DNA from: Planctomycetota bacterium
GTDB taxonomy: Bacteria; Planctomycetota; JAJSAM01; JAJVHW01
DNA: 64,000 nt
Direction: 5' to 3'
NCBI GenBank assembly: GCA_965248445.1
Contig: CBDFJG010000003.1
Location: forward strand, 1,728,001-1,792,000
The translations under genes were made by a program, and so were the position numbers. The notes beneath the pieces were generated by a model that was not told the origin of the DNA, did no database searches, and saw only the letters and a list, made by a program, of their open reading frames with translations. Shown in pieces: positions 23,591-44,314 of this stretch (the stretch's first letter is position 1; each line of letters starts with the position of its first letter).

Positions 23591-23812
23591 CTACCGTCCC
23601 CTGAGAAAGTCGCGGATGGCGTCGATGACGAAGGGGTTTCTGGGCCGGCTCCGGTGCTCCGGGTCGGCCGCCTCCCACCGGGCCAGGGTACGGAGTCCGA
23701 CTCGGAACAGGGCCGCGGCCTGCGCCTGGGTCATGTCCCGCGCAGCACGTTCGTCGCGCAGCGCGGCCACGAGCTCCTCGCCGGGCGGGAGCCCGTGTCG
23801 TGGCAGTTTCAC
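23591..23812 (-). CDS. Small XRE/Cro-like helix-turn-helix protein
   Basis: LRDERAARDMTQAQAAALFRVGLRTLARWE matches the XRE HTH pattern; GTG at 23812. Confidence 0.8.
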   Translation of the reverse strand: MKLPRHGLPPGEELVAALRDERAARDMTQAQAAALFRVGLRTLARWEAADPEHRSRPRNPFVIDAIRDFLRGR

Positions 23813-23895
23813 ACGGCGTCGGCGGGGCACGGGCAGGAGTGTAGTCACGCATCCGACCCGCCTGGCGAGCGCAACGGAAGCGCGGAGGGCGAATA

Positions 23896-23934
23896 TGCCA
23901 ATTGGCAGACGGCAATGTGGCACGCCATGTGGCA
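23896..23934. promoter_or_regulatory. Three operator-like 12-bp sites between divergent HTH genes
   Basis: TGCCAATTGGCA (23896-23907, perfect palindrome), GGCAATGTGGCA (23911-23922), CGCCATGTGGCA (23923-23934). Confidence 0.5.
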
Positions 23935-24031
23935 GACTCGCCGGTCAAGAAATGAGAGAGGGCCCGTCACGGCGTGGTGCGCCATCGACGGGCCCGGTTG
24001 CACACCCAACGGTACGGAAGGGAGCACGGGG

Positions 24032-25554
24032 ATGACGGTACACGACGAGACGACAGGGTTTCAACACGGTTCTCCACAGCCGCGCGCGCTGCAGTTCGAC
24101 GGCGGGGCGCTGCGATCGCGGCGAGAGGCGGCGAACGTGTCCGTCGACGAGGCGGTCCAGCTCATGAAAGCGGTGGCCGCGCCGGGCTCCGAGGAGGACC
24201 CCGAACGGAGCCTCCGGTTGACTCTCGGCCTCGCCGAGCTCGGGAGCCAGCCCCTGCACCTGGCCCACTTCCGGGCCCTGGTGCTGCGCATCGACTGTGA
24301 GCCGAGCGATCTGTACCGGGACGCGGGCGAGTGGCGGGTCGATGGGACTGACTTCGGTGCGACGAGCACCCGCGTGGGCACGTCGCAGAAGGACTTCGCC
24401 GCACTGACCGGAGTCTCGCTCGACTTGGTGCAGCGCATGGAGAGCGAGAGGGCCGGCGAGTGCACGCTGAACGAGTTCCTCGCCTACACGATGGCGACGG
24501 GGGAGCACGACCTCGACGAAGTGCTTGAGCAGTGCATCCAGATCTTGAACGTCTCGTGGACCGGCGAGGGGGAGGAGTGGCCGATGCGCTGCTCCGGGAT
24601 GGACGACGAGTTGCGCGCCGAGTACGGGTACGAGGAGCCGGCCCCAGCGAAGCCGCCCCGTCCGAACGGTCGCGCCCTCAAGCGCAACGTGAGCGCGTTC
24701 CAGCGGTTCCTCGACGACGCGCGCATGTCGCGCGAGGAGTTCTTCGCGGACTCTGGCTTCAACTGCGCCAGGAAGACCCACGACGGGTGCGGCACGATCG
24801 ACAGCCTCCGGGGCTGGTTCGAGGAGGGCGCCATTCTGGACTGGTGCGCGTCCATCATGTGCGAGGTGCTGGATCGCAAGTGGGGCGACCAGTTCCACGA
24901 CATCGGCGAGTGGCAGCTGGACGGGACCTCGTACGCGCTTCATCGCGCCCGGTTCACCATCTCGGACGAGGAGTTCCTCGACGCCTGCGGCCTGGATGCA
25001 TCCGTCGTCGCGGAGATCGAGGGGCCGAAGCTCGGCGAGGCGCGCTACCGCGATGTGCGGCCGCGCTCTTTCCCGACACGAACGTCCACAAGGCGATGGA
25101 GGACTTCACCGGTGAAGGGCACCGCTCGATTCGCGCCTTCTGTCCCGGCTTCGACAAGGACAGCGAGTCGGCCGTACTCCGGCTTCGTGATCTCGCTCGG
25201 CAGATCGCACTCGCGCTGCGGGACGATGGTTCACCGTGGGATGGCGATCGCTGGTGGCGCATCATCACCGACACGATCTTCCACGACATCGACGAGACGG
25301 CGTACATGCCAGCGTTGCAGCGCACGATGGTCGAGAACGGCTTGCTCCCCGCGCACCCCGCCGACGACGAGACGATCTCACTCGCCCGCTTCCGTGTCAG
25401 CATCCGGCGCATGGCGGGGGCGGCCGGGATGAGCGACGCTGCGATCGACGAGTTGATCGACGCCACACCGGATCATCCCGTGCGCGGTCGTCAGCCGGGC
25501 GTGCAAGCGGTGCTTGAGGACAAGGGCGTGCTCCCGACGTACCCTTCGACCTGA
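24032..25554 (+). CDS. Multi-HTH (XRE-like) repeat protein with a frameshift at ~25057
   Basis: ATG at 24032 after GGAG. Repeated units DAGEWRVDGTDF..TSQKDFAALTGVSLDLVQRME and DIGEWQLDGTSY..ISDEEFLDACGLDASVVAEIE. The C-terminus continues in the frame of ORF 24532..25554 (AALFPDTNVHK...). Confidence 0.6.
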
Positions 25555-30057: not shown

Positions 30058-31678
30058 CTACTTCGCCTGCCGGTCGTCCATGTTGCGGGCGTCCGCGACG
30101 AGCTTCAGGAACTCGGCGCGGTAGCCGTGCTCGTCCGTCCCCATGGCGCCCTGTGCCATCTCGCGGACGGAGTCGTATGTGGCGCTGCCACTGTGTCCGC
30201 TGCCGCGCAGCACCATGCCGAACGAGGCGACCGACGCTGCGAAGCGGAAGTCGGCAGACGCCGACTGCCACGCGTTGCCGGGATCCTGCACGGCGTAGCT
30301 GAGGAGCTTGCTGGTCGCGCCCTGGGGGTCCTTGTAGCGCAGCTTCACGGTCATCAACTCGCCGGTGCCGGATGCGCGTGTCGGGTGGCGGCCGGTCTGG
30401 TACTTGAGGGGGTCAACCTCGGGATCGATCGTGTTCGCGCCGGGAGGGACGATCTCGTAGAGCGCGGTCACCGAGTGGCCGGCGCCAATCTCGCCCGCGT
30501 CCTTCTTGTCGTCGTTGAAGTCGCGCGCGGCCAGCATCCGATTCTCGTATCCGATCAGCCGGTACGCGGCGACGTGCGATGGGTTGAACTCAACCTGGAT
30601 CTTCACGTCCTTGGCGACCGTCACGAGCGTGCCGCCGGCCTCCTGGACGAGCACCTTGCGGGCCTCGGCGAGCGAGTCGATGTACGCGTAGTTGCCGTTG
30701 CCCTTGTCGGCCAGCTTCTCCATCGTGGAGGTCCTTGACGTTCCCCGTGCCGAAGCCGAGGACGGTCAGGAAGATCCCGCTCTCCCGCTCCTTCTCGATC
30801 AGCCGTACGAGTTCTCCCTGATTCGTGGTGCCGACGTTGAAATCGCCGTCCGTGGCCAGGATCACGCGGTTGATGCCGTCGGACTGGAAGCCCTCGCGGG
30901 CCAGCGCGTACGCACGCTGGATGCCCTCGCCGCCGTTGGTCGAGCCGCCGGCGTTCAGCGCCTCGAGGGCGTCGCGGAGGCGTGTCTTCTCGACGCCCTC
31001 GGCGTTCTCGAGCACGACACCCGCGGCGCCCGCGTAGACCACGATCGAGATGCGGTCCTCGGGGCGGAGGTTGTCCACGAGCAGCGGCAGCGCCTTCTTG
31101 AGCAAGGGGAGCTTGGCGCTGCTCGCCATCGAGCCGGAGACGTCGAGAAGGAACACGAGATTGCGGGGCGGCACGTTTTCGTCACTGATGTGGCGTGCCT
31201 GCAGTCCGATGCGCGCTAGACGGTGTGCGGGCTCCCACGGGCAGGCCGCGGCCTCGGTCGTGACCGCGAACGGCGCAGAGCCGTCCGGTTCCGCGTAGGC
31301 GTAGCTGAAGTAGTTGACCATCTCCTCGATGCGCACGGCGTCGGGGGGCGGTAGCGCGCCGTCGTGGAGGAAGCGGCGCACGTTCGCGTAGGAGGCCGTG
31401 TCGACGTCGATCGAGAACGTGGAGAGCGGCTTGTCGAGGGGGGAGTGGAACGGGTTCTCGTCGATCTTGTCGTATGCCTCGGTGTTCATCGCCCGGTCGA
31501 CGTCCTGGACGCCGGCGATCATCCCGGGCTGGTGCGCAGTCGCGTACTTGAGCGACATGCGGGCGACGGGCGGGGAAGCTGCGGGGGCACCCGCACCGGC
31601 ATCGGTTCCGGATCCACATCCGGGTACGGCGACGGCGGCGAGCGTGACAGCGGCGAGAACGCGGGCGGCGACGTGCAT
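30058..31678 (-). pseudogene. YfbK-like VWA/DUF3520 lipoprotein, frameshifted at ~30730
   Basis: STFSIDVDTASY, VRIEEMVNYF, MIDAS DVSGSM, LATDGDFNVG. An extra C in AAG GAC-C-TCC ACG ATG splits the gene from MEKLADKGNGNYAYID...DAGEIGAGH. Confidence 0.88.
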
Positions 31679-32208: not shown

Positions 32209-32688
32209 TCAGTCCGCGAGTTGGTCGTCGGCGAGCCACTCGCGCAGGAAGGCGAGATCGGCGAGCGCCGTCTCCGAGTCCTCGGGAAGGACGGTCATCG
32301 AGACCACCTCGCCGGCGGGGTCGAGCCACACCAGCGTCGGGAAGTTGACGACCCCGTACTGCTCGACGAGCGCGGGTTCGTCGTCCTTCTCGAGGTAGAC
32401 CGCCTCGATCTCCGGCGCGAGGGCTGCCTGCACTCTTCCGTCGGCGAGAGTCGCACGGACCCTCCGGCGGTTGTTCTCTCACCAGTCCGCGGCGAACAGC
32501 AGCATCGCAGCGCGCTCGTCTGCCCGCACGGCCTCGTACGCTGGAGCGCCCTGCGGCATCCAGTCGCGAACCTCGAGCGACGCGGGTGTGTCGGCGGCCG
32601 GCGGCGGGGCCACGCGCTCGATCTCGGCTTCCCACGCGACGGCGAGGACGGCCCCCAGGGCGAGCGCGAGCAACGGTATGGCGGCCAT
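32209..32688 (-). CDS. Putative selenoprotein: exported thioredoxin-fold protein (W-U-E-N-N), TGA at 32479-32481 read as Sec
   Basis: ORFs 32479..33003 and 32209..32433 share a frame. The joined product reads LLFAADW-U-ENNRR...LVEQYGVVNFPTLVWLDPAGEVV, including the Trx cis-Pro motif. SECIS-like hairpin at +14 nt. Confidence 0.8.
32446..32464 (-). promoter_or_regulatory. Bacterial SECIS-like hairpin
   Basis: GAGGGUC-CGUGC-GACUCUC starts 14 nt after the UGA; 7-bp stem with one G-U pair and a G/U-containing loop. Confidence 0.7.
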
Positions 32689-32736
32689 GTGTCTCACAAG
32701 TGGGCATCCTACCGCCCGGAGTAGCCTGCCCCGCTC

Positions 32737-43478: not shown

Positions 43479-44156
43479 TCAGTTCGACGCCGTGCGCGGG
43501 CCGACGTGGCCCTCGAGCCACTGGCGCACCTCGCCAGGCTTGAAGCCGAAGGGCCCGTACCCGCCCTGGTAGGCGATGCGGCCGTCGGCGCCGACGACGT
43601 ACAGACGGTCCGGCCACGCCGCGTAGGCGGTGGCGACGGCGTCGTCGACGTCGTCAACGACGACCGGGAACGAGATGTCCATTGCGTCACCGCACTGGGA
43701 CGCCGCGCCCTGACGCTCCGTCAGCGTCGTTGGCTGCGAAATCGAGATGCCGGAGCCGGTGTTGTCCGGCGTGACCCACTCGTCCGAGGCGTGCGCTTCG
43801 CGGATGTAGACCATCAGGAACTCGGCACCGCCGCCGTACTCAGCGCGCATCAGTTCGAGGTCACCGACCCCGTTGCGAAACGGTCCTCAGGTGTACGACC
43901 CGAACACGAGCACCACGGGCTTGCCCCGCAGATCGGAGAGGGTGACCTCCGAACGCGCATCTTCCGTCCGCAGCGTGAAGTCCGGTGCCGCGTCTCCGAC
44001 GGCGACGTCGGTCTTTACGAAGTGAATGTGTGCGGGGTCGATCTGCGGCGGGATGTCCGGCGGTCCGTCCATGGTGCCTCCACGCGATGCGCAGGCGGCG
44101 AGCGCCAGCGCGAGGAACGGGAGCAGAGTGACAGGTCGGTGTGACCGTCGTCTCAA
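43479..44156 (-). CDS. Putative selenoprotein: iodothyronine deiodinase-like / redoxin-fold lipoprotein, TGA at 43887-43889 read as Sec
   Basis: TTG start after GGAGG; lipobox LAAC; APDFTL...KPVVLVFGSYT-U-GPF...VYIREAHASDEW...YAAWPDRLY...GPFGF, the deiodinase family signature; the two track ORFs are in frame. Confidence 0.9.
43856..43872 (-). promoter_or_regulatory. Bacterial SECIS-like hairpin
   Basis: CGGGGUC-GGU-GACCUCG starts 14 nt after the UGA. Confidence 0.78.
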
Positions 44157-44314
44157 GGCCGCCTCCGTGTTGGGATGGCCAGCAGCATAGCCGAGTCCGC
44201 AGCCGCCGAAGAGCGGTGCCTTTCCCCGGCGATCTGGGCGTAGGATGCCGCGCTCGCAGTCCAGACGGGTCGCCGGTGGGCCCGACCAGTGCCGCGCACG
44301 CGGAGGGAGAGCTG

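Follow-up and report, generated by a model that had tools for sequence, protein, structure and literature searches.

The locus raises two questions: whether a reading frame interrupted by a TGA codon at an active-site position encodes one protein, and what such a protein could do with a single selenocysteine (Sec). The initial annotation had placed this TGA at the position of the first Cys of a thioredoxin (Trx) WCxxC motif, with the strand unstated, and it was found there, on the minus strand (32481-32479), within the window, that is, the whole stretch of 64,000 nucleotides that was analysed. A plus-strand reading yielded no sensible protein and was rejected. From the ATG at 32688 the frame runs to 32212 and encodes a 159-aa product (MAAIP...LLFAADW-U70-ENNRR...YGVVNFPTLVWLDPAG...DQLAD), followed by the terminal TGA at 32211-32209. 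An upstream GTG at 32697, the start chosen by the public gene caller (library fragment P0004), gives a 162-aa form with an added basic n-region. There are no Cys codons in this frame. The gene almost certainly encodes one selenoprotein, and its features are listed in Table 1.

Table 1. Features of the gene on the minus strand of the window.
Feature	Position	Strand	Details
Complete gene with one in-frame TGA	32209..32697	-	162 aa (GTG) or 159 aa (ATG)
Predicted signal peptide with a basic n-region and a hydrophobic core; A-V-A precedes W	32635..32697	-	Predicted by inspection
Pro/Ala-rich linker, low confidence	32572..32631	-	pLDDT 53-57 over residues 1-40
Thioredoxin-fold domain, DsbD-gamma/Thioredoxin_7 type, without Prx/GPx/deiodinase insertion	32215..32571	-	AF2, Foldseek, Pfam
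In-frame TGA, predicted selenocysteine U70 (159-aa form), WCxxC first-Cys column	32479..32481	-	Invariant in 7/7 loci
Asn in place of the resolving Cys (subfamily: N, T or S, Cys never)	32470..32472	-	Alignment
SECIS-type hairpin: 7-bp stem, 5-nt loop CGUGC	32446..32464	-	Loop 21 nt after UGA
Phe-Pro at the thioredoxin cis-proline loop position; Pro invariant	32338..32343	-	cis geometry presumed from the family

A sequencing error at the TGA, which the initial annotation had suggested looking for as TGC or TGG in raw reads, was rejected: the Logan contigs of all four runs span the region with no other letters and no gaps relative to the assembly. The four runs are not independent, since they come from a single sample, from which the assembly itself may derive. 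A scan for promoters and terminators around the gene gave no match.

Conservation of the TGA within a small subfamily

A search of 61 genomes detected close relatives with one TGA in four of them (G014, G012, G005 and G006). When a profile was searched against the 17 genomes of the class, five matches had E<=1e-61, scores that are inflated as these five sequences are themselves in the profile, and nothing else was better than 4e-19. No further subfamily member was found among 401 genomes of the phylum with eight candidates scored in each. Patterns built from a five-sequence alignment (A1) were used for locus scans; across 185,579 species genomes the scan gave four loci, which are Planctomycetota MAGs by title and the same as those in G014, G012, G005 and G006, and a metagenome scan added two more (L067 and L068). 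The subfamily thus comprises seven loci, from five genomes of one Planctomycetota class and two metagenome contigs. As G006 and L068 are nearly identical, the number of different sequences in the aligned stretch is six.

TGA occupies the same column in all seven loci, the other loci being 32-49% identical to the window protein, and distant homologues have Cys there (WCxxC), which is the outcome that the initial annotation had expected of a selenoprotein. Its description of U-x-x-N as the unusual hallmark of the family did not survive the comparison. The motif is UENN in the window gene, UTTN in G014, G012 and L067, UGAT in G005, and UGVS in G006 and L068, so that position +3 is N in four of the seven members, S in two and T in one, and three members carry the UxxS/T forms that the annotation itself had called common. 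A resolving Cys was found in none of them (0/7), and its absence, not the presence of Asn, is the trait that the aligned members have in common.

In the comparison of G014 with G012, dN/dS was 0.21/0.85 (~0.25) before the TGA and 0.18/0.75 (~0.24) after it; in this pair, purifying selection acts before as well as after the codon. The pair G006/L068 was uninformative downstream of the TGA (dS 0), and pairs including the window gene gave higher dN/dS, about 0.5, near saturation.

The SECIS-type hairpin and the Sec machinery

The 7-bp hairpin that had been noted to start 14 nt downstream of the TGA was confirmed at 32464-32446 (GAGGGUC-CGUGC-GACUCUC), with a stem energy of -8.1 kcal/mol. It agrees with the bSECIS model as quoted in the available text of PMC13188914, in which a loop of 3-9 nt lies 16-37 nt from the UGA and has a G within its first two nucleotides. 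Of 3200 random TGAs of the genome, 29 (0.9%) have a stem of 7 bp or more at the equivalent position, and 420 (13%) pass a loose hairpin criterion. The hairpin taken alone is modest evidence; the strong evidence is conservation in all seven loci. All of them have a 7-bp stem, with 42 of 42 cells paired, compared with 36-60% paired in slid controls. Two pairs changed on both sides (compensatory), and this level was reached by 14 of 500 shuffles; both changes come from G005 and may be events of a single lineage. A lineage-specific consensus for the SECIS loop was dropped, as it was post hoc and matched only 10 of 29 candidate genes.

The Sec machinery, which the initial annotation had named as a prerequisite, was present. 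In the genome (5.4 Mb, 92% complete), selA (425.7 bits), selB (335.7 bits), selD (386.1 bits) and tRNA-Sec (selC; 68.3 bits against a cut-off of 47) were all above curated cut-offs, and selD carries an in-frame TGA of its own. Across the class, selA was found in 17/17 genomes.

It is extremely improbable that the locus is not a selenoprotein gene, and that it represents a nonsense mutation, a sequencing error, two small genes or a TGA read as Trp, Gly or Cys. Such an explanation could appeal to the hairpin, which alone is not rare, and to the single sample behind the contigs that confirm the bases; it is opposed by the retention of TGA in seven of seven loci at 32-49% identity and by the selection on both halves. 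The GTG with which the downstream fragment starts occurs at that column in only one of the seven loci. Genome-wide reassignment of TGA was rejected, as TGA is the main stop codon, terminating 1309 of 2051 long ORFs, and the sole UCA-anticodon tRNA among 56 is tRNA-Sec. Since TGA is still the main stop, the recoding would be site-specific.

Export signals

The N-terminus has by eye the pattern of a tripartite signal peptide with a visible A-x-A, and residues 7-23 form a helix in the AlphaFold2 model. From this pattern, the window protein is likely to be exported. The six other members all have lipobox-like motifs by inspection (LPGC, FAGC, LAGC, LGAC and, twice, TAAC) and are predicted lipoproteins. 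In place of a lipobox the window protein has LAVAW, in which the apparent matching residue is Trp (TGG) and which reads as a putative A-x-A cleavage site. The initial claim that there is no Cys anywhere in the product accordingly holds for the window protein and fails for the other six, each of which has the lipobox-like Cys.

Fold and origin

The AlphaFold2 model had a mean pLDDT of 83.9, with block values of 90-98 over residues 41-150, and shows an N-terminal helix and linker of low confidence followed by a plain Trx fold. The best structures in Foldseek were the C-terminal domain of DsbD (4ip1, 1vrs) and thioredoxins. In the model the predicted nucleophile precedes a helix and the cis-Pro loop position is occupied, the cis geometry being presumed from the family; P117 is invariant in 24/24 aligned rows. 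No Prx/GPx/deiodinase insertion was seen between the strand at 94-100 and the F-P loop, and a Q/L/H-P motif specific to the subfamily lies in the loop that follows strand 4. Pfam thioredoxin models matched below their cut-offs (22.0 against 27 and 18.8 against 23.5). These model, structure and sub-threshold profile matches support the Trx fold that had been proposed from the sequence.

A careful tree was calculated from 40 rows (28 loci plus 12 library proteins, selected on the basis of a 114-row quick tree) with a midpoint root. The seven members formed a clade (support 100/99) within a 14-row group that includes UxxC selenoproteins (87/94) and within a 22-row group that is mostly UxxC (95/97). 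The subfamily adjoins a UxxC clade, with the branching order between them unresolved, which includes a paralogue from the same genome (UGAC), and its nearest neighbours in the tree are UxxC forms (UGAC, UGFC, UGYC and UTFC). On the simplest reading, the subfamily may have originated from a UxxC selenoprotein that lost its resolving Cys. Versions with Cys (CGYC, CGWC) occur in sister clades, and the subfamily clade has none so far; all genomes of the class have selA, which places Sec-less hosts outside the sampling for Cys versions. The UxxC Trx-fold proteins of the same class form two sister clades (L012, at G000 C1:172965, L020, L041, L042 and L046; L039, L043 and L048-L050; and L055), and the two of these proteins that were tested were both below NCBIfam cut-offs. 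A further relative, L024, has lost both redox residues.

Representation in databases and catalogues

In a library clustered at 50% identity, the two best matches were the N-terminal half of this very gene, which stops at the Trp preceding the TGA, and a foreign C-terminal half with 85% identity. In a 90% collection, in which the best 8000 candidates were scored, all 17 matches were fragments cut at the TGA, four of them N-terminal (ending ...W) and 13 C-terminal, and none of the 17 was a protein spanning the site with Cys. Ten fragments were looked up and one was named, as 'hypothetical protein'. The initial annotation's expectation that pipelines would split the gene in two was therefore borne out. 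No fused form was found among 8000 long candidates, a weak search. Among the distinct C-terminal fragments from other samples, just one of 17 contained a Cys, and there is thus no conserved distal resolving Cys. Fragment P0171 has a Cys immediately before the invariant Pro, and fragment P0159 starts with a called Met near the resolving position, which hints at another non-Cys residue there.

No NCBIfam model was near its cut-off for the window protein or four tested relatives. The models TsoB, VPGUxxT, Trx7/PDZ, WAxxUGC, UXX-star and TsoY all scored these proteins below cut-off, and the best score of a named selenoprotein model in the subfamily was 21.8 bits against a cut-off of 805 (TsoB). 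Table 1 of PMC13188914 includes UxxC Trx-type families together with single-Sec UxxT, UxxS and UxxV families, with no UxxN entry in the available part of it, and the string 'planctomyc' occurs 0 times in the text of that paper. A keyword search in the available text of deep-Sep (PMC12013277) gave no matches. No paper on the subfamily or on a UxxN protein motif was found in a literature search whose scope left out most subscription papers. The supplements and websites of BSepDB (PMC13326102) and deep-Sep could list subfamily genes under a generic Trx label. The suggestion of an undescribed family is upheld in part: the subfamily is uncatalogued in the sources checked, and it is a small, lineage-restricted offshoot of the UxxC Trx-fold selenoproteins. 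It is of a well-known kind, and what is new is the lack of a resolving Cys in a protein of the DsbD-gamma type.

Genomic context and other selenoproteins of the genome

The gene is flanked by a divergent EamA transporter gene and a convergent FHA gene. A conserved operon was rejected, the neighbours being common only to close pairs and not shared across families, and they give no functional clue. At L051 and L052 (G014 and G012), the gene follows ORFs resembling a heavy-metal transporter cluster (by eye, from N-termini), and at L051 it precedes an integrase-like ORF (by eye). Elsewhere in the window, a lipoprotein gene on the minus strand (30058-31678), which we take to be vWA-domain-like, appears to be split over overlapping frames (30590-31678 and 30058-30723), possibly by a frameshift or assembly slip, and two overlapping long ORFs on the plus strand (23654-25554) resemble one frameshifted gene.

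A Trx profile search of the genome gave 18 TGA-spanning frames, three of which were set aside as ordinary stops or noise; 12 of the remaining 15 are UxxC. A screen by coding score and motif added AhpD-like CxxU, DUF3179-like and deiodinase-like candidates, the first two labels being presumptive, assigned from the motifs. Some 20 or more further candidate selenoproteins were noted on the four contigs of this genome (G000), mostly Trx-fold UxxC, with CxxU and UPLC forms in addition. Two weakly Trx-like TGA frames without a Cys at +3 also have SECIS-like hairpins, at C1:331183 on the minus strand (GIW-U-PGK) and at C4:1210341 on the plus strand (EEFC-U-TN). The deiodinase-like candidate lies in the window (43488-44270, minus strand, TGA at 43889-43887, GSYT-U-GPF), matches Pfam T4_deiodinase with 115.5 bits against a cut-off of 27, and has a lipobox-like LAAC and a SECIS-like hairpin. 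The single DsbD of the genome has U-I-N-C in its gamma domain and is a predicted Sec-DsbD (C1, minus strand, TGA at 397943, DsbD_TM match at 398343-398936); its hairpin was below the SECIS filter used. Neither DsbB nor glutathione synthetase was found in the 92%-complete genome.

Proposed function and alternatives

The best explanation of the protein is a mono-selenol catalyst of thiol-disulfide exchange or isomerisation in the envelope, re-reduced via Sec-DsbD and UxxC redoxins. This rests on the fold and on chemistry, and we consider it about evenly poised between right and wrong. Thiol-disulfide chemistry is favoured because of the Trx fold, the kept F/Y-P loop and the descent from UxxC redoxins. 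SelB bound to the hairpin would insert Sec at the UGA, and the signal peptide would export the protein, which may be lipid-anchored in the relatives and is here probably released or membrane-tethered. From the beginning of the active-site helix, the selenolate would then attack a client disulfide or oxidised Cys to form a mixed Se-S bond. Resolution of the mixed disulfide in dithiol enzymes is the task of the second Cys, as described in the available text of PMC12561257; this protein has no internal partner Cys, so a client or partner thiol must resolve the mixed Se-S bond. Such a resolution would be favoured by the selenolate, which leaves readily. The resolving group could be a second client thiol, giving isomerisation, or an outside thiol such as that of a UxxC or CxxC redoxin, and electrons would be supplied by the genome's DsbD, itself a predicted selenoprotein.

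None of the computations run separates an exchange catalyst from redox, metal/halogen or tether alternatives. A one-Sec peroxidase or sulfenic-acid reductase, whose selenol would yield selenenic acid on oxidation by a client or by peroxide and be recycled by a partner thiol, is unlikely. Table 1 of PMC13188914 lists single-Sec UxxT and UxxS motifs for selenoproteins of the GPx-like and Prx-like kinds, three of the seven members are UxxT/S, and the genome has many potential recycling redoxins; set against these are the lack of a Prx/GPx insertion in the model, the absence of any GSHPx or AhpC-TSA Pfam match at E<=1 for the window protein, the variation between T, S and N at the +3 position, and the glutathione synthetase that was not found in the genome. 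It is distinctly unlikely that the protein uses an exposed selenolate outside the cytoplasm to capture soft metals, metalloids, electrophiles or (in a deiodinase-like chemistry) halogen. Deiodinase-type selenoproteins combine a Trx fold with a single Sec, and the window contains one at a distance of 11 kb; the protein surface is strongly acidic, and the gene follows apparent heavy-metal transport genes (by eye) in G014 and G012. This metal-gene context is, however, limited to two related genomes of one family and is absent at the other loci, and the window protein has no T4_deiodinase match.

A covalent tether or redox switch, in which the protein would stay joined to a single partner through a long-lived Se-S bond or form an Se-Se homodimer, like a natural trapping mutant, is decidedly improbable. 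Without a second Cys, internal resolution of the mixed bond is impossible (available text of PMC12561257). Also in favour of a tether, the Q/L/H-P motif after strand 4 suggests a dedicated binding surface. Against such a long-lived bond, thiols readily resolve Se-S bonds, and there is no conserved partner gene.

Relation to known systems and significance

The proposed exchange catalyst can be compared with several known groups. UxxC Trx (PF00085) and thiol:disulfide interchange (PF13098) selenoproteins share the Trx fold, the Sec at the first-Cys column and the downstream SECIS, whereas all seven subfamily members lack the Cys at +3 and the window protein is below the Pfam cut-offs. DsbD gamma and Thioredoxin_7 (PF13899) are alike in structure matches, in the kinked active-site helix and in the F/Y-P loop; in contrast, the window protein is small and stand-alone, has Sec for the first Cys and no second Cys, and is ~23% identical. 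GPx-like (UxxT), Prx-like (UxxS), UXX-star (NF041114), VPGUxxT (NF041382/NF041383), deiodinase-like (PF00837) and TsoY (UxxV) proteins have, like the subfamily, one Sec without a Cys at +3, and are thus a precedent for its type of chemistry, but their models miss the window protein and the four tested relatives, and the structural model is without their Prx/GPx insertion. Monothiol Trx-fold proteins, such as the CxxS isomerase-like ERp44 and monothiol glutaredoxins, act with one nucleophile and are resolved by an outside thiol. The subfamily would be similar in both respects and differs in having Se and not S, in its predicted location in the bacterial envelope, and in a genome in which glutathione synthetase was not found.

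The subfamily is small and so far limited to one class, and single-Sec Trx folds have precedent. There is also a gap in annotation, as every database match is a fragment, and searches for selenoproteins by homology to Cys forms would tend to miss the subfamily. For most selenoproteins Cys orthologues exist and the resolving Cys is kept, so that the question of what selenium permits beyond sulfur is difficult to address. The small soluble domain of this protein carries a single predicted Sec with neither a partner Cys nor, among the relatives found, a version with Cys. Tentatively, and with more doubt than confidence, this might be a selenium-obligate redoxin of the DsbD-gamma type, without Cys orthologues, that gave up its resolving Cys as selenium made it unnecessary, and that would provide the isomerase arm of a periplasmic redox network based largely on selenium, in which Sec-DsbD supplies at least a dozen Sec redoxins of an uncultured Planctomycetota class. 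With the UxxC paralogue (UGAC) of the same genome as a natural control, the subfamily would be a clean test of Sec replacing the two-cysteine mechanism.
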